Source: a bacterium (GTDB lineage Bacteria; Cyanobacteriota; Sericytochromatia; S15B-MN24; UBA4093). From it: 64,000 nucleotides of DNA. Both the position numbers and the translations under genes were made by a program. Below the pieces are notes generated by a model. It did not search any database and was not told the DNA's origin. It saw only the letters and a list, made by a program, of their open reading frames with translations. The stretch covers positions 156,956-220,955 of the forward strand of contig JAYKJE010000021.1 of assembly GCA_035285805.1 (NCBI GenBank), in the 5' to 3' direction. Positions within the stretch are counted from its first letter, which is position 1; every line of letters starts with the position of its first letter. Shown here piece by piece: positions 3,562-44,301 of the stretch.

Positions 3562-4725
3562 TCATCTCCTCCTCAGCCAGTCGAGCCAGGCGGCAGGCCC
3601 GGTGCGGACGGGGACCATGGCGCGCGTGGGCCCGAGTTCCCGGGCCAGCGTCTGGATCCGGCGGGACAGGGGATGGGACGGCGCCGCGACCAGGAGCGGT
3701 TCCCCGCGGTCGAGCGCCGTCTGGGTCGCCTCGGGGGCATGGGGCAACCGGTGACGGATGCGGCGCCCGATGGCCCGCTCGATGCTCTCCGGCTCGAAGC
3801 GACTGGGGGCATCCCAGAGCACGACGTTCCAGCGGGAGGTGTCCACCCCCTGGGCCTGCCAAACCTGTTCGGCCTGGCGGAGCTCCCGGAAGGCGATCAG
3901 ATCCGGGAACAGGGGCACGAAGGTGGTGTCCGCCGCCTGGAGCGTCTCGAGGGCCGCCTCCTGCGGTTCGCTCGGGACGTCCACCACGACCCATCCTCCC
4001 CGGGAGGTCAGCGTCGAGAGGGTGCGCCGGAAGCAGCCCTGGTGGATCAGGGTCGTCTCATCCGGTGATCGGGTCACGGCCAGCCAGCGGAGCCCGGAGG
4101 GGTGCGCGAGCGTCGCTTCCTCCAGCTCGTCGCCCCGGCCGGCCCGGACCAGCTCGGCGAGCGTCAGGGTCGGCTCCAGGTTCAGGACGAGATCGAGCGC
4201 CGGATAGGCAGGAACGGCCTCGAGCAGGGTGACTCCGCCCGGGACCATCCGCGTCAGGGCGATCGCCAGGTTGGTGGCGAGCGTCGTCTTGCCCGAGCCC
4301 CCTCGGGGCCCGTGGACGGCGATGATGCGTCCGGGTTCCTCGGGGCCCGGATCGGGGACGGCCCGTCGGAGACGCTCCTGGAACCTGGCCGCCCTGGCGA
4401 TCGCCGGTCCGAGCTCCGCCGGGCTTCCCACGACCTCGCGGATGCCCCCCTGCATGACCTCTGCCAGCTCCCGGGCTTCCAGGGTGGTCCCGACCAGCAG
4501 GACGGACAGCGTCGGATGACTGGCGAGCCAGACGTCCAGCGTCGCCTGGACGAGCGGAATCGGGAGGGGGAAGGGGGCTCTCCAGACGATCAGGTCGATT
4601 TCCCGGGGGGTGCCCGAGGCCTCGGCCCGTCGTTCGACGTCTCCCACGAGTTCGTGGGCGGCCAGAACCTCGTTCCAGGTTTCCAGGTCGGGGCCCGTCC
4701 CGACCAGCCAGGTCTTCAGTGCCAT
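3562..4725 (-). CDS. cpaE: CpaE/TadZ-type pilus assembly ATPase-like protein (N-terminal receiver-like domain plus MinD/ParA-type P-loop)
   Basis: Deviant Walker A VHGPRGGSGKTTLATNLA. N-terminal receiver-like region. Adjacent to cpaF with a 1-nt gap. Confidence 0.8.
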   Translation of the reverse strand: MALKTWLVGTGPDLETWNEVLAAHELVGDVERRAEASGTPREIDLIVWRAPFPLPIPLVQATLDVWLASHPTLSVLLVGTTLEARELAEVMQGGIREVVGSPAELGPAIARAARFQERLRRAVPDPGPEEPGRIIAVHGPRGGSGKTTLATNLAIALTRMVPGGVTLLEAVPAYPALDLVLNLEPTLTLAELVRAGRGDELEEATLAHPSGLRWLAVTRSPDETTLIHQGCFRRTLSTLTSRGGWVVVDVPSEPQEAALETLQAADTTFVPLFPDLIAFRELRQAEQVWQAQGVDTSRWNVVLWDAPSRFEPESIERAIGRRIRHRLPHAPEATQTALDRGEPLLVAAPSHPLSRRIQTLARELGPTRAMVPVRTGPAAWLDWLRRR

Positions 4726-4738
4726 GTCGCGTGCTCCC

Positions 4739-5686
4739 TCATCGCACAGCCGCGACGGGCGCGGGCACCGTCTCGTCGGCGAGCCTCACGGCGTACCGGA
4801 GCGCCGTACCGGCCACCTGGTCCTGATCCAGGGTCTCGAGGTAACGCCCCACGACCTCTCCGCGTCGCGTCGTGTAGCTGAGGTACACGCGTGCGAAACC
4901 GGCGATTGTGACGTTCGAGCGGCCCGAGGCCTCGAAGAAGTCCCGGTCCAGCAGGGCGACCGTGATCACCCGCGGGGTGCGCGTGCCGAGCTCGGCCTCC
5001 AGGAAGGACGTGGTGTCTCGCCCGATCAGCTGCTGCAGCGTCGCGGCCGTGGGACCGGCCATGTCTCCTGGTTCCGTGGGGATCATCTCCCCCTTCCTGA
5101 GCGTCCGCCGGGCCCCGTCGAGCAAGCTGGAACGGTAGGTCCGGGCTCCGGGACCATCGATCGCGAGGGCCTGGAAGTTGCCACGGATGTTGCCTGGACC
5201 GCTCCGTTTCAGCAGGATTTCCTCCCCTCGGGCATGTCGCTGGCCCGGCAGCCCCAGGGGACGCAGCCCCTGGGTGACGTCCACGCAATGGAGGTCCGCG
5301 ATCGAGCGAGCCCCGATCGCGAGCTGGCCAGGGCGTTCGCGTTCCGACGGCAGCAATCTCGACAGCTTCCCCACCCAGCTGGCCACGGGAGTGCGAAGCC
5401 GCACCGTCACGCGGCTCCCCTGCGTGATCGTGATGTCACCGTCCGCCGGAAGAAAGCCGTTCTGGCGGGCCAGGTCCCGGACGGCCTTGCGGGCCTGATC
5501 CGGCCCCTGCATCAGCCCCCGGGCACCGGCGAGAGCCGCCGCATCGCAGGCGCTCTGGAGCCGGGTGCGCTCGAGCGTGACGGCTCCCACGTCTGCCACC
5601 AGGCCGAGCACGAGCGTCAGGCCCAGGCCCCAGAAGGCCGTGATGACCATGGTGCTTCCGCATTCGGGATCGTGCATCGGCTTCAC
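4739..5686 (-). CDS. TadG-like pseudopilin/pilus assembly protein with TadE/G-like N-terminal domain
   Basis: N-terminal TM segment followed by ...LQSACDAAALAGARGL..., typical of the TadE/TadG-like family. Overlaps the secretin gene by 4 nt. Confidence 0.55.
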   Translation of the reverse strand: MKPMHDPECGSTMVITAFWGLGLTLVLGLVADVGAVTLERTRLQSACDAAALAGARGLMQGPDQARKAVRDLARQNGFLPADGDITITQGSRVTVRLRTPVASWVGKLSRLLPSERERPGQLAIGARSIADLHCVDVTQGLRPLGLPGQRHARGEEILLKRSGPGNIRGNFQALAIDGPGARTYRSSLLDGARRTLRKGEMIPTEPGDMAGPTAATLQQLIGRDTTSFLEAELGTRTPRVITVALLDRDFFEASGRSNVTIAGFARVYLSYTTRRGEVVGRYLETLDQDQVAGTALRYAVRLADETVPAPVAAVR

Positions 5687-6978
5687 CTCGCGGGGGGGGA
5701 GGGGGACGAGGACGGAGACGTGGAGGAAGTGGCCACGGGTGACGGGGGGGGCATGGTCCCGGAGGTCCCCAGGACGGTGGGGGTCACGAGGATGGCGAGT
5801 TCGGTCTCCTGGTGCTGGTATCGCGTCGATCGGAACAGTTCCCCGAGAATGGGTACGTCGCCCAGGAAGGGGAGCTTCTCCACGAGCTGCGAGCTGACGT
5901 CCTGCAGCAATCCCCCGATGGCGAGGCCCTCGCCCTGGGCCAGCACGACCTGGGTCTGGGCCCGGCGGGTCGTGATGGCCGGAACGACGAAATTGGCCAG
6001 GCGTACGGCATTGGCGACGTCGAGCTGGGAGACTTCCGGGGCGACCTGGAGCGAGACGCGTCCGTCATCCAGCACCTGCGGCGCCATGTCCAGCTTGATC
6101 CCGTAGGGTTTCCATTCGAAGGTGACCTGGTTGAGCTGCTGGCTCACCGGCACCGGGACCTCGCCCCCGGCCAGAAAGCTGGCCTTGCCTCCACTGACGG
6201 CGACCAGCTTGGGTCGGGCCAGGACGCGGGCATCGCCCCGGGCCACGAGCATGCTCAGGCGGGCGGCGATCCGCTCGTAGAGCCCGAAGGCCGTGCCGCC
6301 GAGGTCGGAAAGGGGCTGACCGGCTCGCGGGTTGCGGGCATCAGCCTGGGTGAGCCCCAGGTTGTCGGGCTCGAAACGGTCTTCGCCGTTCGACGAGCGG
6401 TTCATCTGGCCCCACTTGATTCCGAGCTCGTGACTGGCCGTCTTGCCCAGCTCCACCACCTGCACGTCGACCTGGACCTGCTGGACCGAGTCGGCCTCGA
6501 GCAGGTTGACGACCCGCGGGGCGAAGCTCTGGGCCAGCTTTTCCGCCTGCTGGGCCTGGCTCGTTCGGGCCACCCGACCCGTCAGCAAGACGGTGTCCTG
6601 GACGACCTGGACGCCGAGACCCCGGGCGCCCGTCACCCGGGCGATCGTGTCCTTCAGGAGGCTGGCGTCGAGACGCACCGAGACCTCGTACCGGGTCAGG
6701 CCCCGCTCCGTCCAGACGAAGCAATGGGTGCTACCGGCCCGCTTGCCGTTGACGAGCACGGCGTGACCGTCGAGGACCGCAACGTCCGCGATCGTCGGGT
6801 CCGTGACCGAGACTTTCGTGATGCGCGGCCCCGATCGGACGACCTCGGAATGCCCGACGTCCAGAGGCAAGGACATCGAGGCGATCGCCTCGGTACCCTG
6901 TGCCCTGGCGGGCGTCCAGGGGTGGAGGGTGATCCACAGGCATGGCAGGATCCAGCCGCGCAGCGTTCTGGAATTCAA
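5683..6978 (-). CDS. cpaC: Flp pilus secretin CpaC/RcpA
   Basis: Signal peptide, BON-like N-terminal region and a C-terminal secretin domain (LARPKLVAVSGGKASFLAGGEVPVP... VTPTVLG). Confidence 0.85.
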   Translation of the reverse strand: MNSRTLRGWILPCLWITLHPWTPARAQGTEAIASMSLPLDVGHSEVVRSGPRITKVSVTDPTIADVAVLDGHAVLVNGKRAGSTHCFVWTERGLTRYEVSVRLDASLLKDTIARVTGARGLGVQVVQDTVLLTGRVARTSQAQQAEKLAQSFAPRVVNLLEADSVQQVQVDVQVVELGKTASHELGIKWGQMNRSSNGEDRFEPDNLGLTQADARNPRAGQPLSDLGGTAFGLYERIAARLSMLVARGDARVLARPKLVAVSGGKASFLAGGEVPVPVSQQLNQVTFEWKPYGIKLDMAPQVLDDGRVSLQVAPEVSQLDVANAVRLANFVVPAITTRRAQTQVVLAQGEGLAIGGLLQDVSSQLVEKLPFLGDVPILGELFRSTRYQHQETELAILVTPTVLGTSGTMPPPSPVATSSTSPSSSPSPPAR

Positions 6979-7823
6979 CGGTTCACCTCTTCTGTTTGGG
7001 TGCCGCGGATGACGAGGATCCCCCGGGGTGCGGAAGGACGCTCGACGACCCGGACGGTCACGGGGACCCGGACGGGTACCCGGACCACGCGCTGGGCAGG
7101 CCCGGAATCGGGGGCCCGACGCGGGACCCCGAGCAGCGTATCGGGAGTCACCCCGGACGTCCTGGCCGTGCTGCTTTCGGCGTTCGAACGCATGGCGAGC
7201 CTGATCTTGCCGCGGTCGGCGGCCAGGATGAGACGTTCGGTGTCGGCCGGGGTCACGGCTAGCGTCGCCGACGACACCACCCGGGCGCCCTCACCGGAAG
7301 CCCGGTCGGCCTCCTGGGCGCAAGCCAGGACCCGGACGCGCTGGAGGAGGAAGTGCGTCGTCGTTTCACCCTCGACGTCCATCGTGCTCACCACGTCGAC
7401 CACCATGCCGGGTTGAACGAATCCCGCCACCCCGACGACCTCGTCGACGGCGACGGTCACGGCACGCATCCCGGGCGGAACGGGCAAGATCGCACGTTCC
7501 CTTTGACCGCGTGGCCAGAGGTGTTCCTCGAGCACGGGTTCTCCGGGAACCAGAGCGATGCGTCCCGAGCGCCCGATCAGGCCCTCGATCGAGTCCGTGG
7601 CTCCTGCCGGGGTGAAGCGTTCCGGGCGATCCTGCAGGGTCAGGTCGCGCGGGCCGATGGGTTCGTTCGGGGCCACGGTACGCAGGGCCACGACGACGGG
7701 GCGCGTGGCCTCCGGTGCGGCCTCGGAGGCCTGGACGCGGCTGAACCACCAGGTCATGCCGGCGCTCGAGGCGAGTCCGAGCCCGGCGGCGATGACGATC
7801 CGGGGAATGCGAACGGGGTTCAT
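6975..7823 (-). CDS. cpaB: Flp pilus assembly protein CpaB/RcpC
   Basis: N-terminal membrane anchor and CpaB-like composition. Overlaps the secretin gene by 4 nt, directly downstream of the tadE-like gene. Confidence 0.75.
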   Translation of the reverse strand: MNPVRIPRIVIAAGLGLASSAGMTWWFSRVQASEAAPEATRPVVVALRTVAPNEPIGPRDLTLQDRPERFTPAGATDSIEGLIGRSGRIALVPGEPVLEEHLWPRGQRERAILPVPPGMRAVTVAVDEVVGVAGFVQPGMVVDVVSTMDVEGETTTHFLLQRVRVLACAQEADRASGEGARVVSSATLAVTPADTERLILAADRGKIRLAMRSNAESSTARTSGVTPDTLLGVPRRAPDSGPAQRVVRVPVRVPVTVRVVERPSAPRGILVIRGTQTEEVNR

Positions 7824-8209
7824 GGAGCCTCCTGGCGCATCGTGGCCGTGGCGGCGAGCCAGAGCGGGACGGGAAGCCCGGGGATGCGCACGGTCACCTC
7901 GAGCGGGTGATCGAGCCGGACCTGCACGTCGGACCCGTCCGACGAGCGGGGGTGGCCGATCGATACCCGGGTCCCGGTGGTCTCGATCCCCGCACCGGAC
8001 AGGTACGCGAGCGTCGTCTCGCGCACCCGGCCGTCGGGGCGACCGAGGGCGCCCAGCCGGGCACCCTCGCGGGCAGCATTCGTGAGCACGAGCTGGGTCC
8101 CGAAAATCTGTCCCAGGGCGAAGATCCCCGTCACCAGGGCCAGGACCAGGGGCAGGGCCAGAGCCGTCTCGACGGTGGCCTGGCCAGAGACATCAGCAAG
8201 TCGCATCAC
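7820..8209 (-). CDS. tadE: TadE-like pilus assembly protein
   Basis: TadE motif ...ATVETALALPLVLALVTGIFALG...AREGARLGA. Start is GTG at 8209 or ATG at 8206. Confidence 0.7.
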   Translation of the reverse strand: MMRLADVSGQATVETALALPLVLALVTGIFALGQIFGTQLVLTNAAREGARLGALGRPDGRVRETTLAYLSGAGIETTGTRVSIGHPRSSDGSDVQVRLDHPLEVTVRIPGLPVPLWLAATATMRQEAP

Positions 8210-8218
8210 GTGTTTCCG

Positions 8219-8392
8219 TTACTTGCTGGTGCTGCTCAGCGTGTTGGCGATTGCTGATAGCATCTTGTTGACATTTGTGCCCATCATGGTCAGCGCACCG
8301 ACCGTCACGACGGCGATGAGGCCCAGGATGAGTCCGTACTCGGTCAGCGCCTGGCCGTCCTCGTCCCGGATGAAGTTCGCGAGCATGGTCAT
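8219..8392 (-). CDS. flp: Flp family type IVb pilin
   Basis: 58-aa product MTMLANFIRDEDGQALTEYGLILGLIAVVTVGALTMMG... with the Flp signature G/XXXXEY followed by a hydrophobic helix. GGAGGAG ribosome-binding site 6-7 nt upstream of the ATG at 8392. The ORF track's longer N-terminal extension is unlikely. Confidence 0.8.
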   Translation of the reverse strand: MTMLANFIRDEDGQALTEYGLILGLIAVVTVGALTMMGTNVNKMLSAIANTLSSTSK

Positions 8393-8474
8393 GGGGGATC
8401 TCCTCCTCGGTGGGGGGTGGGGGGCGAACGAGACCATCATCGTCGGCACGCGTGACGTCGCTTTCACGCTCGCG

Positions 8475-9380
8475 TTACGGCAGCTTTCGGATGTCCGTCA
8501 GGCGAGTCCAGGCGACCTCGACCTCGAGGGCGAGTCTCTCGAGTTCGCGGACGCCCCGGAGCCGGGTGCTCGCCCGCTCGAAGAGCCGAAGCCTCGCCCC
8601 GTGCTGGAGTCCGGCGTGCATGAGGGCTTTCAGCGTTGGCTCGCCGAGGCTCGCCCGGACCCCCGCGGGAAGGGTTTCCAGGATGGCTCCTGCTTCTCCC
8701 TCGATCCCCGTCAGTCGCGAGAGCACGCGATCGAGCAATTCGACCGGTGCCGAGGCACGGGCCCTCACCCGCAGGACGTGGTCATAGAAGGCAATCTCGG
8801 GGGCCAGTCGCTTCACGTGCATCGACAGGTCGGGCGTCCGGAGCACGAATCGCGGCTCGCGTCTCCCGCGGACGACATCCTCGATGTGGAAGCATCCGAG
8901 GTCCATCGCCGCCACGAAGTGCCACTTCAGTCCGAATCTGCGGTGCTGGACCAGGAAGGCATGGACATCCGCATCGGAGAGCCAGAGGAGTTGCTCGATG
9001 CGCCTCCGGACGGTGCGCAGGTCGCTCGAGTAAAGCACCGGGTGCGTGTGAAAGGCGCCCAGTTCCGCATGGACGAGGTCGTGGGGGCGGCAGCGATAGC
9101 GGACTCCGATCGTTCCGGTTCCCGGCGCCCGGACGGTCGCGGTCGTGAGGTTCTGGTACTCGAGGATCCGGTCTTCACAACCTCCCATCATCCCGGCCCG
9201 CTCGTCGAAGACCGGCAGCCGACGATGAAGGGATGAGGCGGAGGCAGTCAGGGTGTTGAGCATGCTCAGCCCGAACTCGTCGATGAGCCGGGCATGCATC
9301 GAGGCCGAAACGCGCAAGGGTTCTCCAGGGTGCACGGACGGAGGGGATCCGTTCCAAGGGGTATCCATCCTGGAGATCAC
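8475..9380 (-). CDS. hypothetical cytoplasmic protein (301 aa), first gene upstream of flp and divergent from dam
   Basis: Long ORF with GTG start (or ATG at 9368). No recognisable motifs. Coding-like codon bias. The promoter region is the GATC-rich AT-rich intergenic segment. Confidence 0.5.
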   Translation of the reverse strand: MISRMDTPWNGSPPSVHPGEPLRVSASMHARLIDEFGLSMLNTLTASASSLHRRLPVFDERAGMMGGCEDRILEYQNLTTATVRAPGTGTIGVRYRCRPHDLVHAELGAFHTHPVLYSSDLRTVRRRIEQLLWLSDADVHAFLVQHRRFGLKWHFVAAMDLGCFHIEDVVRGRREPRFVLRTPDLSMHVKRLAPEIAFYDHVLRVRARASAPVELLDRVLSRLTGIEGEAGAILETLPAGVRASLGEPTLKALMHAGLQHGARLRLFERASTRLRGVRELERLALEVEVAWTRLTDIRKLP

Positions 9381-9516
9381 GTGTTATTGTAAACATCGAG
9401 TTACGGAGACATCGATCACAGAGCACATTTGATCTATTGATCACATATTTCTGTCGATCAGCGTGATCAAATGTCTCCAGATGATCGTTGGCACTTACCC
9501 GGAGGACCCCCCGCGC
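9375..9516. promoter_or_regulatory. AT-rich divergent intergenic/promoter region with a dense cluster of seven GATC (Dam) sites
   Basis: GATC at about 9375, 9414, 9431, 9439, 9456, 9465 and 9483, including repeated TGATCA half-palindromes. About 85 bp of under 40% GC inside a roughly 70% GC genome. Lies between the 301-aa gene (start 9380, minus) and dam (start 9517, plus). Confidence 0.6.
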
Positions 9517-10347
9517 ATGGCCCGTACACGTTCCCTGTCTCTCCCCACCAAGGCGCAGCCCTTCCTGAAATGGGCGGGGGGGAAGACTCGCCTGCTGGCC
9601 CAGTTCGAGCCGATGTTTCCGCGGCGGTTCCGGCGCTACCACGAACCCTTCATCGGGGCGGGAGCCGTGTTCTTCCACCTGCAGGCACGCGAGGCCTTCA
9701 TCTCGGACACCAATCCGGACCTCATCACGTGTTACCAGGTCCTCCAGGCGGACCCGGCCAGCCTGATCGAGGTGCTCCGGTTGTACCGTCATGATCGCGA
9801 TTTCTACTATCACGTTCGCGATCTCGATCCCCGCGAGCTGAGTCCCGTCCAGCGGGCCGCGCGGATGATCTTTCTCAACAAGACCTGCTTCAACGGCCTC
9901 TGGCGCGTCAACCGGCAGGGGCGCTTCAACGTGCCATTCGGAGATTACAAGAATCCCCGGATCGTCGATGCCGACAACCTGGCTCTCGTTCACGCAGCCT
10001 TGCAGGACGTCCACATCCGGCAGGCCGGGTTCGAGCAGGCCCTGGCCGACGTCGAACGCGGGGATTTCGTGTACCTCGACCCGCCCTATCATCCGGTCAG
10101 CACGACGGCCCGATTCACGAGTTACGGGGCCGATGACTTCCGGGAAGCCGACCAGCGTCGACTCGCGGAGGAGTTTCGTCGCCTGGATGCGCGCGGTGCC
10201 CGGGTCATGCTGTCGAACTCCGACACGCCCCTGGTGCACGAGCTCTATGCCGGTTATCGGCTCGACCTCGTCACCTGCAACCGGGCGATCAACCGGGATG
10301 CCTCCAAGCGTGGCGCCATCCACGAGGTGGTCGTCCGGAACTACTGA
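9517..10347 (+). CDS. dam: DNA adenine methyltransferase (Dam family, GATC-specific N6-adenine MTase)
   Basis: FLKWAGGK AdoMet-binding motif and catalytic DPPY (YLDPPYHP), Dam-like length. GGAGGA ribosome-binding site 10 nt upstream of the ATG at 9517. The ORF track's start at 9463 (GTG) lies inside the AT-rich region. Confidence 0.85.
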   Translation: MARTRSLSLPTKAQPFLKWAGGKTRLLAQFEPMFPRRFRRYHEPFIGAGAVFFHLQAREAFISDTNPDLITCYQVLQADPASLIEVLRLYRHDRDFYYHVRDLDPRELSPVQRAARMIFLNKTCFNGLWRVNRQGRFNVPFGDYKNPRIVDADNLALVHAALQDVHIRQAGFEQALADVERGDFVYLDPPYHPVSTTARFTSYGADDFREADQRRLAEEFRRLDARGARVMLSNSDTPLVHELYAGYRLDLVTCNRAINRDASKRGAIHEVVVRNY

Positions 10348-10543
10348 GGTCGATCCGGAGCCGCTTCCGGGTATCTCTCTTCCGGGGGGAGGGCGATATC
10401 GATGCGTGGTGTTCCCGTGACCTGGAGGGGCCTCTGGCGATCGGCCGTGCTCGCGCTCTGGGCGTTGAGCCTCGTCGCCTGTCGGACGGATGTGCGAAAT
10501 TTCTGGGACCTGCCCTAGGCTTCGCGAGGTGGCCCCGGGCGTC

Positions 10544-12569: not shown

Positions 12570-13367
12570 ATGAGCAGTGCCATCCACGTCATTCCTGATC
12601 CTGCCCAGCTTCTGGCCGAGGCACGTGCTGCGATCGTCAAGAGCCGGTACTTCCAGCACGGCAGGACGGACCGCTACGGCCATGTCGTGGGGTTGCGCGA
12701 GTATCCCGCCGGACGCGTGCCCACGGATCATCAGGTTCATCACTACGACCAGGCCGGGCGAGTCATCCTGTTCGAGAAATACACGAGAGATTTCTCGAAG
12801 CCCACGTATCGACTGTATCGCTATGCTGGAAACGTCATGAACGAGGCCATCTGGATCGACCGCTATGGCCACATCGAACATCATCACTGCTTCCAGTACG
12901 ACCGGGTCACCGGTCAGATGGTCTGGCGGGCCGAGTACCAGCCCGACGGGACGCTGTTCTACAGCGTCGCATCCACCTACGACTCGGTCGGAAACCTCAT
13001 CGAGGATGCCTATTTCGACCGGAATGACGTGTTCGTGAAGCGGGAGGCTTACGAGCACGACAAGGCGGGAGATGTCACCCGCGAACGTTTCTATGACCAC
13101 GAGAATGCCCTGGTGGGGTTCAACACGTTCACCTACGACAAGCAGAGGCGGCTGACCGCTCGCATCTGGCATGGACCGGATGGCGTGCGACGTTCCCGTT
13201 TCGCCTACACCTACGATCGCCAGGACAGGCTGTCTCGTCTCACCGTGTATGGTCCCACCGACAAGAATCCTCTGGTCCAGGAGTTCACGTATGACGACGT
13301 GGGTAGCGTCACCCGGGAACGCTGGATGGAGGCCTCGGGACAGGTCGTCAAGGAACTCGTCTTCTGA
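12570..13367 (+). CDS. YD-repeat (Rhs/teneurin-type repeat) protein, 265 aa, no signal peptide
   Basis: At least six YD-type repeats (HYDQAGRV, YDSVGNL, YEHDKAGDV, YDKQRRL, YTYDRQDRLSRL, YDDVGSV). No Rhs core or toxin domain. The AT-richer region 12476-12545 upstream is a likely promoter. Confidence 0.7.
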   Translation: MSSAIHVIPDPAQLLAEARAAIVKSRYFQHGRTDRYGHVVGLREYPAGRVPTDHQVHHYDQAGRVILFEKYTRDFSKPTYRLYRYAGNVMNEAIWIDRYGHIEHHHCFQYDRVTGQMVWRAEYQPDGTLFYSVASTYDSVGNLIEDAYFDRNDVFVKREAYEHDKAGDVTRERFYDHENALVGFNTFTYDKQRRLTARIWHGPDGVRRSRFAYTYDRQDRLSRLTVYGPTDKNPLVQEFTYDDVGSVTRERWMEASGQVVKELVF

Positions 13368-26113: not shown

Positions 26114-26497
26114 GCTTGCGTGACCGCGACGGAACCGCCGGTTCAGAACCCATCGGACATGCGCACGCCATCCTCTTCGCCCCAGTGGGCCCAGAGAGGG
26201 GACCATTCCCCGTCTTCCCAGGGGAGTTCATCGTCCCAGGTTTCACGGGAGCATCCCTCCGAGGGTTCCCAGGGGGACGTGACCGGGACGAGCATGGGGG
26301 TGAAGGAGCGAGAATCCAGATTCATGGGCACCTGCCAGCAGAATGACGGGGGATGAACATGAATCAATTATACATGATATTTTATTATTTCAAAACGATT
26401 TCATAAAAATCAGGCACGAAATGGGGGCTCAAGTGCGGGGTGAGCTTGACGATGTGATCGGTGTCACCGCTTCACTGACTTCGAAAGGAGCCCGACC

Positions 26498-43377: not shown

Positions 43378-44105
43378 GGACCCTCCTGAATGTGTGACCC
43401 CGCTCCCGTGGGGCGTTCGCCGAAAATTGCCCTGCCGATTCGCACCAGGGTCGCCCCTTCCTCGATGGCCACCTCGAAATCCGTCGACATCCCCATCGAC
43501 AGTTCGAGACCGCCCGGCCAGTCCGTGACGTCCTGCAGATCCTGCGTCGCGAACTCTCTCAACCTCCTGAAGACCGGTCTGACCTCCTCCGGATCATCGA
43601 CCCGGGGCGGAATGGTCATGAGCCCCCTGACGCGAACCCCTGACCAGCCTTGACAAGTTTTGAGTGCGGTCGCTACCTGGTCAAGCATGAAGCCTGACTT
43701 GGTCACCTCCCGGGCGACGTTGACCTGGAGGAGGACGTCCTGAACCCCGTTCGACGAACGAGCGCACCGGTCGATCGAGGCCAGGAGTTCCAGGCTGTCG
43801 ACCGAGTGGATGAGCTTGAACCGGGAACCACAGCGCCCCACCTTGTTGCGCTGCAGGTGTCCGATGAAGTGCCATTCGAAGTCGCAGTCAGCCAGGGCTT
43901 CCTGTTTCTCGATGGCCTCGACCACCCTGCTCTCTCCCACGAGGGCCCCTTCCAGCCATGCGGCTTGCCGCACCGTCGCGGCTGGAACCCCTTTGGTGAC
44001 CAGAACGACACGAACCGCCTCGGCGGGTCGCCCCGATCGTTCGGCCCGGGCACGCACGCGCGCCAGAACCTCGGTCATCCGTTCGTGGACAGAGAGCTTG
44101 TTCAC
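43374..44105 (-). CDS. yggS: YggS family pyridoxal-phosphate homeostasis protein (alanine racemase N-terminal-like fold)
   Basis: Motifs VVLVTKG...LEGALVGESRVVEA, HFIGHLQRNKV, SVDS. Overlaps the sepF start by 4 nt. Confidence 0.85.
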   Translation of the reverse strand: MNKLSVHERMTEVLARVRARAERSGRPAEAVRVVLVTKGVPAATVRQAAWLEGALVGESRVVEAIEKQEALADCDFEWHFIGHLQRNKVGRCGSRFKLIHSVDSLELLASIDRCARSSNGVQDVLLQVNVAREVTKSGFMLDQVATALKTCQGWSGVRVRGLMTIPPRVDDPEEVRPVFRRLREFATQDLQDVTDWPGGLELSMGMSTDFEVAIEEGATLVRIGRAIFGERPTGAGSHIQEGP

Positions 44106-44301
44106 GGCATCAAGTCAACATCACGTCTTGATTGCACTCTATCACCTCACGGTGACTCAGACAATAAACCGCGCCGTCGTTCCGTTCGGTAACCCCGATC
44201 ACGCGTCTCACGAAGTCCTCCGTGCGGGCTGGACGATGCGTTTTCCCTGCTCGATCGTCACGATCCGGGACCACGCCCGGCTGGCGGGGCGGGAGGTGTC
44301 C

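Follow-up and report, generated by a model that had tools for sequence, protein, structure and literature searches.

The window analysed here is a stretch of 64,000 nucleotides from a bacterium of the Sericytochromatia (contig JAYKJE010000021.1, positions 156,956 to 220,955), and this report concerns an array of GATC sites in the short spacer between dam, which encodes an orphan adenine methyltransferase, and the divergent gene x280, which heads a Tad pilus operon. The first-pass annotation of this DNA had proposed that the cluster is a regulatory feature linked to Dam, and comparison with related genomes bears this out: the cluster is kept in three clades, its tetramers are largely invariant, and it is missing from syntenic loci that lack dam. 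We give a probability of roughly 0.5 to the reading that the array is a set of Dam targets in the control region of dam itself, that it would provide feedback through methylation state, and that it is shared in this lineage with the divergent tad genes.

Related loci were sampled through x280 (24 loci) and through Dam (80 loci), and they are numbered here with the prefix L. The x280 family is limited to Sericytochromatia-like metagenome-assembled genomes (MAGs), in which the order duf4332-bacA-[dam]-x280-flp-tadE-rcpC-secretin is conserved and only some lineages have dam. In 13 loci dam lies next to x280 in divergent orientation (L001, L002, L006, L008-L012, and L025-L029), with identities of 57-99% for Dam and 45-99% for x280. 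The closest is L006, from a 'Candidatus Sericytochromatia bacterium' MAG (Dam 98% and x280 94% identical). All 13 carry an array in the spacer, with 4-8 GATCs per 112 bp, and they form three clades. Twelve of the 13 loci have no other GATC cluster as dense as the array; L027 has one elsewhere, also of five sites. A conserved box, TTGTAAACAT, stands beside the array in 12 of 12 dam-adjacent Sericytochromatia loci examined. About 15 x280 loci without dam have no such cluster upstream of x280; they include four syntenic loci in which bacA directly adjoins x280 (L007, L020, L022, and L024). Both these four and other dam-less x280 loci lack the adjacent box too. Dam-less x280 loci also tend to have a lower GATC density (several at 3.6-6.9 per kb) than dam-bearing ones (7-10.6 per kb).

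Alignments within each of the three clades show a conserved block made up of the box and the array, flanked by variable, indel-rich sequence. Inside the block the GATCs are kept and the spacers of 4-5 nt change (for example, GATC-ggat/ctgc/tttc-GATC). Invariant columns make up 20/20 of the GATC positions and 43/55 of the others in clade 1 (Fisher p 0.029), 12/12 and 41/71 in clade 2 (Fisher p 0.003), and 29/33 and 46/63 in clade 3 (Fisher p 0.12). The core array is near-identical in the window, L006, and L001, despite an x280 identity of 62% in L001. The predicted target sites of the enzyme have been kept in orthologous loci beyond neutral expectation. The spacer, the two genes that bound it, and the elements of the array are as follows.

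9318-9516: non-coding spacer of 199 bp between dam and x280.
9517-10347, plus strand: dam, orphan D12-class N6-adenine methyltransferase gene, with a Shine-Dalgarno sequence GGAGGA at 9501-9506.
8475-9317, minus strand: x280, 280 aa, predicted JAMM/MPN fold, head of the flp-tadE-rcpC-secretin operon, with a TTG start at 9317 and a Shine-Dalgarno sequence GGAGAA at 9326..9321.
9346..9349: eighth GATC (GGATCC), in the x280 leader region, clade-specific.
9375..9378: GATC site 1, on the x280 side, downstream of a TACAAT hexamer; not kept in L001.
9387..9396: conserved box TTGTAAACAT (ATGTTTACAA on the minus strand) at the tad-side edge of the array, including TACAAT (9391..9386) and TAAAC/GTTTA.
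9406..9478: core conserved array of five GATCs (9414, 9431, 9439, 9456, 9465), edged by an inverted GAGACAT(N1-2)GATCA pair.
9414..9417: GATC site 2, inside GGAGACATCGATCAC.
9425..9474: perfect inverted repeat with 10-nt arms, ACATTTGATC / GATCAAATGT, set 30 nt apart.
9431..9442: GATC sites 3 and 4, GATCtattGATC, at 8-bp spacing.
9456..9468: GATC sites 5 and 6, GATCagcgtGATC, at 9-bp spacing; the 5-nt spacer differs among relatives and both GATCs are kept.
9483..9486: GATC site 7 (GATGATC), only in the window, L006, and L025; GGTC in L001.

Seven GATCs had been described at 9375-9486 (112 bp), and all of them are present, as are the quoted strings TTGATCTATTGATCACA and TCGATCAGCGTGATCAAATG; the site at 9346 is added here. 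The GATCs thus start at 9346, 9375, 9414, 9431, 9439, 9456, 9465, and 9483. They are located 34-171 bp upstream of the dam ATG, and seven or eight of them are within 170 bp of the x280 start. Only the five sites of the core are kept in L001. The divergent gene had been given 301 aa; its start is really the TTG at 9317, which gives 280 aa, with GGAGAA 3 nt upstream and homologues of about 280 aa, and in L001 the upstream ATG does not share the conserved reading frame. Because x280 starts at TTG 9317, the spacer runs from 9318 to 9516 and all eight GATCs are non-coding.

Site spacings are 17-8-17-9-18 in clade 1 (that of the window), 25-8-9-8-18 in clade 3, and about 16-17 in clade 2. The spacings of 8-9, 16-18, or 25 bp are approximate multiples of 8.5 bp and are out of phase with the helical repeat; in clades 1 and 3 this lattice covers about 69 bp. 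The TACAAT in the box is the best -10-like hexamer of the spacer. Two inverted copies of the GAGACATnGATCA motif lie 51 bp apart, and the pair is present nowhere else in the window. No further relevant copies of the box or of the GAGACATnGATCA motif were found in the window, where the box has otherwise one coding match. In clade 3 (L010, L011, L012, L028, and L029), a 15-bp palindrome lies directly past the last array GATC, about 85-100 bp upstream of the dam ATG; it is perfect in L011 and L012 (GGACGCACTGCGTCC) and has one or two mismatches in L010, L028, and L029. The clade 3 array is also flanked by two direct copies of CACTTGCTTG. The palindrome and the CACTTGCTTG repeats, both absent from the clade of the window, are possible binding sites for another factor.

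The window has 67% GC, and the array segment at the centre of the spacer has 42-43%. An expectation of one GATC per 350 bp had been used for this DNA, which is the value from base composition; the window actually holds 581 GATCs, or one per 110 bp, and against this observed density the enrichment in the cluster is about 7-fold. The array is the densest GATC cluster of the window, the runner-up having 5 sites per 112 bp. A comparable GATC density in other AT-rich segments had been named as grounds for dismissing the cluster. The four other AT-rich segments (8188-8287, 12760-12860, 26284-26489, and 44067-44170) carry 0-1 GATC each, and the objection fails. GATC is over-represented in the window as a whole (581 versus 517 +/- 20 in dinucleotide shuffles), and this absence of avoidance fits protective or regulatory methylation, not unopposed restriction at GATC. 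A group of five GATCs in the dam coding region (9765-9870) was considered as a part of the element and rejected; its positions are partly shared among relatives and fall at conserved codons.

Dam is predicted to be specific for GATC. The protein matches PF02086 (1.4e-61) and TIGR00571 'dam' (289 bits, cut-off 115), and among proteins of solved structure it is closest to DpnM (2dpm, 1e-73) and E. coli Dam (5e-41), both of which methylate GATC. When aligned, it shares the FLKWAGGK, NGLxR, and FNVPFG segments with E. coli Dam; structural work on the E. coli enzyme is reported to place the residues that contact GATC in these segments. No restriction enzyme gene was found beside dam in profile and PADLOC matches of its neighbours, which are a 38-aa lipoprotein-like open reading frame (ORF) and bacA downstream and x280, with no PADLOC hit, on the divergent side. 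The gene is an orphan and not part of a type II restriction-modification (R-M) system.

In the proposed mechanism, Dam would methylate the 5-8 GATCs upstream of its own gene. Recent replication or a shortage of Dam would leave the sites unmethylated or hemimethylated, and sufficient Dam would leave them fully methylated. Methylation state would alter how RNA polymerase, a methylation-sensitive factor, or Dam itself binds, and would feed back on dam transcription, most likely with a negative sign that would give homeostasis. In the clade of the window, the spacer would also hold the only promoter of x280-flp-tad, and the array would probably affect pilus expression in a layout like that of CfrBI. 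The array may derive from a promoter of the R-M type. The comparison shows that the array exists and is conserved, that it keeps its tetramers while the spacers vary, that it co-occurs strictly with dam, and that related dam genes have similar clusters; methylation of the sites, its effect on transcription, the sign of the feedback, and any effect on tad are inferred.

Feedback of a methyltransferase through its own target sites has known examples. 'dam autoregulation' had been cited as a precedent; to our knowledge, it is not an established GATC-dependent case in E. coli, and the real precedents are CfrBI and ccrM. In CfrBI, as summarized in later accounts, a CfrBI site lies in the promoter region common to the divergent M (methyltransferase) and R (restriction) genes (Beletskaya et al. 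2000, cited in PMC3874152; bioRxiv 10.64898/2025.12.04.692298). Here too, the predicted target of the enzyme lies in a short control region common to its own gene and a divergent one. The CfrBI methyltransferase has been shown to limit its own expression in this way, as Dam would here. As in CfrBI, the group B relatives of this dam, described below, belong to true type II R-M operons, and GATCs overlie their promoters. Unlike CfrBI, the window has an orphan methyltransferase, a divergent pilus operon in place of a restriction enzyme gene, and 5-8 regular sites, not one. In the CfrBI subtype the divergent partner is regulated reciprocally; here x280-flp-tad, a partner that is not a restriction enzyme, shares the 199 bp in a divergent layout and might be regulated in this way.

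The Caulobacter ccrM gene is 'most probably' controlled by its own GANTC sites in the promoter/leader, in the wording through which the original work is cited (Stephens et al. 1995, cited in PMC3973325). Like ccrM, this dam encodes an orphan, chromosomally conserved adenine methyltransferase with its own targets in the control region. The ccrM enzyme differs in class and motif (GANTC), has two sites and not an array, and works with CtrA and the cell cycle. As in these two systems, the predicted recognition sequence of the enzyme lies in the promoter/leader region of its own gene. A literature search on control of tad by Dam or GATC, GATC arrays upstream of dam, and methylation in Sericytochromatia returned nothing specific. 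What appears to be novel here is that an uncultured lineage has a regular array of many sites before an orphan dam and that a pilus operon shares it; the principle is already known.

Related dam genes in other lineages extend the comparison. Upstream GATC clusters are found at an empirical p<=0.05 in 19 of the 80 dam-family loci, compared with 4 expected, and they also occur at related dam genes without a tad neighbour. L049 has 6 GATCs within 45 bp upstream of dam, and L093 and L103 have 6-7. In group B (L034, L039, L043, and L096; nearest named relative an Acidiferrales MAG), the sequence cTTGACAc-N14-GATCAAsGATCC upstream of dam is invariant. It can be read as a -35, a spacer of 17-18 nt, and a -10 of AAsGAT; the GATCs then fall at the end of the spacer, within the -10, and close to +1. 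In group B, the gene that starts 7 nt after dam encodes a DUF6996-DUF6997-DUF7226 protein with a full-length match to PADLOC REase_II (8.5e-53). Because dam precedes a protein matching REase_II, group B is identified from its sequence as a type II R-M operon whose promoter carries its own sites. Pairs of a Dam-family protein and a DUF6996-DUF6997-DUF7226 protein occur in L034 (3890-6068), L043 (480-2663), L039, L096, and L108 (3001-5529), and the latter protein is probably a type II restriction enzyme of the GATC type. In the Acidobacteriota-like group among these loci, the operon promoter is TTGACA-N17/18-AAsGAT, with three GATCs over the spacer end, -10, and +1, and is almost leaderless.

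The promoter pIN of the IS10 transposase has a GATC in its -10 hexamer. The group B dam promoters are like pIN in that a GATC falls in the -10 (AAsGAT-C), besides those where the spacer ends and close to +1, which suggests the logic of a methylation-sensitive core promoter. Unlike pIN, the clade of the window has no GATC convincingly in a dam -10 or -35, and its array resembles an upstream operator region.

On the tad side of the Sericytochromatia spacers, TACAAT/TACATT/TACAAC is the sole recurrent -10-like hexamer. Clades 2 and 3 have a distinct element, TTTACAAAAGTTG, between the array and x280, followed 29-51 nt on by GTAYAnA. This tad-proximal element occurs in L003, L008-L013, L017-L019, and L027-L029, with or without dam, and the array of clades 2 and 3 lies 100-250 bp beyond the conserved module. 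Most simply, the TTTACAAAAGTTG element would be the promoter region of the tad operon, and the box and array a separate module on the dam side. The tad-proximal module has 0 matches at up to 3 mismatches in the clade of the window (window, L001, L006, and L025). Since the module is missing there, the 199 bp must also contain the tad promoter, and an effect of the array on tad is therefore plausible in this clade, where the array may influence x280-flp-tad expression.

Several points weigh against the reading of the array as a control element of dam. A strict scan of 9250-9600 for sigma-70 promoters, and for terminators, found nothing, and manual placement of a -35 and -10 for dam in the Sericytochromatia array gave no solution consistent across clades. 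No convincing sigma-70 promoter of dam could be placed within or beside the array. Every Sericytochromatia dam found adjoins x280, and for this reason the array cannot be assigned to dam over tad within this group; control of tad through Dam would equally predict that dam-less loci lack it. Conserved flanks (GAGACATnGATCA and ACATnnGATC), the inverted pair, and the 10-nt repeat suggest that a sequence-specific protein also reads the region. Most sampled dam homologues, including those of Obscuribacterales (L107) and Anaerolineales (L108), have no upstream cluster, and the feature is lineage-specific and not general to dam genes. Within the window alone the evidence for the cluster is borderline (p about 0.05), at least 7 GATCs in 112 bp occurring somewhere in 4.7% of 300 first-order Markov simulations of the window. 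It is conservation in relatives that carries the case.

The two functions first proposed for the array, autoregulation of dam and phase variation of the Flp pilus, fared differently. Dam-dependent switches of Enterobacteria, including pap (with Lrp), agn43, opvAB, and gtr (with OxyR), have GATCs inside Lrp or OxyR sites and show heritable undermethylation. A switch of this kind for the Flp/Tad operon, in which a DNA-binding protein would compete with Dam at GATC sites to give heritable ON and OFF patterns, appears unlikely, if less so than the other alternatives considered here. It shares with the known switches several GATCs upstream of a surface-appendage operon (at least two in its regulatory region) and an encoded Dam, GATC-specific by homology. 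The lack of the proximal tad module in the clade of the window would place the tad promoter within about 100 bp of the array, the TACAAT hexamer abuts the array, and the two-fold layout (the inverted GAGACATnGATCA pair and the 10-nt inverted repeat) could give alternative binding sets. The adjacency of dam and x280 in every Sericytochromatia dam locus recovered also fits. However, neither a regulator nor a known regulator motif was found, and x280 has a fold like that of JAMM/MPN proteases, not of a DNA-binding protein. Clades 2 and 3 keep a separate tad promoter module between the array and x280, as dam-less relatives do, and GATC clusters occur at related dam genes without pilus genes. The known switches are not linked to a dam gene, whereas this array tracks dam and not the pilus operon. 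Bistability, moreover, is not a property that sequence can reveal. Phase variation of Flp has no specific support, and dam autoregulation has the better comparative support from the clusters upstream of related dam genes without tad.

An operator array that is blind to methylation, bound by a transcription factor or by Dam as a repressor at a recognition sequence that merely includes GATC, is somewhat less probable again. Conservation extends to the bases next to several GATCs (GAGACAT(N1-2)GATCA in clades 1 and 2, and ACAT/ATGT by many sites), and the regular spacing of 8-9 and 16-18 bp resembles tandem protein-binding sites. The TAAAC in the box TTGTAAACAT may be compared with the TARAC element, since E. 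coli Dam is reported to bind non-cognate GTYTA/TARAC next to GATC sites (PMC4417163). TARAC is short, degenerate, and easily present by chance, and the match of TAAAC/GTTTA to it could be coincidence. GATC is the only element common to the three clades and to groups B, C, and D, whose flanks differ, and a methylation-blind regulator of dam that shared the target core of Dam in several independent lineages would be an unlikely coincidence. A more elaborate reading, in which a reader protein on the GATC lattice of about 8.5 bp would compete with Dam in a bistable switch that reciprocally sets dam and Tad expression, is equally doubtful; the module would in that case come from an R-M promoter, domesticated at the time dam became an orphan. 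A cluster without function, arising from chance or composition, or one of the kind found in replication origins, iterons, or phage pac sites, is very improbable. GATC clusters are found in E. coli oriC, P1 oriR, and P1 pac (the last with seven TGATCA/G hexamers), and the array resembles them in packing GATC or TGATCA repeats closely into a short, AT-rich stretch; the marginal significance in the single window and the general frequency of GATC would also suit a chance origin. The same position in about 13 loci with invariant GATCs largely refutes this, the loci are not from near-identical strains (Dam identity down to 57%), and the other AT-rich spacers carry next to no GATC. Unlike oriC, P1 oriR, and P1 pac, the array lies in a conserved chromosomal spacer and has no DnaA boxes, iterons, rep or packaging genes, or skew switch. 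DnaA boxes were absent from 9300-9520 (within 1 mismatch) and no GC-skew switch was found in the window; with flanks of syntenic housekeeping and pilus genes and no rep or phage genes, identity as an oriC, iteron, or pac element was rejected. A structured RNA was likewise rejected; there was no Rfam match at E<=1 in 9100-9700, and clade 3 has direct repeats where clade 1 has the inverted repeat.

The gene map of the first-pass annotation was otherwise right, with a D12/Dam methyltransferase, a divergent unknown gene, and then flp, tadE, rcpC, and secretin. The Tad pilus genes downstream of x280 (the whole set at 5683..8467) are as follows.

8219-8467, minus strand: flp.
7820-8209, minus strand: tadE.
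6975-7823, minus strand: rcpC/cpaB.
5683-6978, minus strand: secretin.

The x280 protein has no Pfam, NCBIfam, or PADLOC hit. Its AlphaFold model (predicted local distance difference test score, pLDDT, 88) matches JAB1/MPN metalloproteases such as the Rpn11 homologue 6fno and AF2198 1oi0. The invariant residues E39, H90-x-H92, S114, and D117 fit the JAMM motif, and a C-terminal helical domain follows. On the basis of the model, x280 is predicted to be neither a nuclease nor an obvious DNA-binding protein, and it was rejected as a cognate restriction enzyme or regulator. The gene precedes flp in every locus seen, and a JAMM protein as a conserved component of Tad loci appears to be undescribed.

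A tiny ORF is conserved downstream of dam (10402-10518, plus strand, in the window; 3804-3932, minus strand, in L001). It has a lipoprotein-like signal (LVAC/LTAC) followed by a mature peptide of 12 aa, CRTDVRN(F/I)WDLP. The dam-less loci L020, L022, and L024 seem to encode a similar short peptide (…CRNGLGN-FD-W) in the same place, divergent from x280. A small DNA-binding gene co-transcribed with dam, such as one of the ribbon-helix-helix type, was sought as a candidate regulator and rejected, as this lipoprotein-like ORF is the only conserved small ORF there.

Mechanistic knowledge of Dam comes nearly all from Gammaproteobacteria, and that of CcrM from Alphaproteobacteria. The Sericytochromatia are the non-photosynthetic sister lineage of the Cyanobacteria, and they host a conserved array, a compact element of 70 bp, before an orphan dam. 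Self-sensing through methylation of own sites may recur as a design, passed on from R-M ancestors to orphan methyltransferases. Should the array gate the Tad operon as well, it would be a first candidate epigenetic switch for surface attachment in this phylum. If the bistable switch were true, methyltransferase dosage and surface attachment would be inherited together as alternative cell states.

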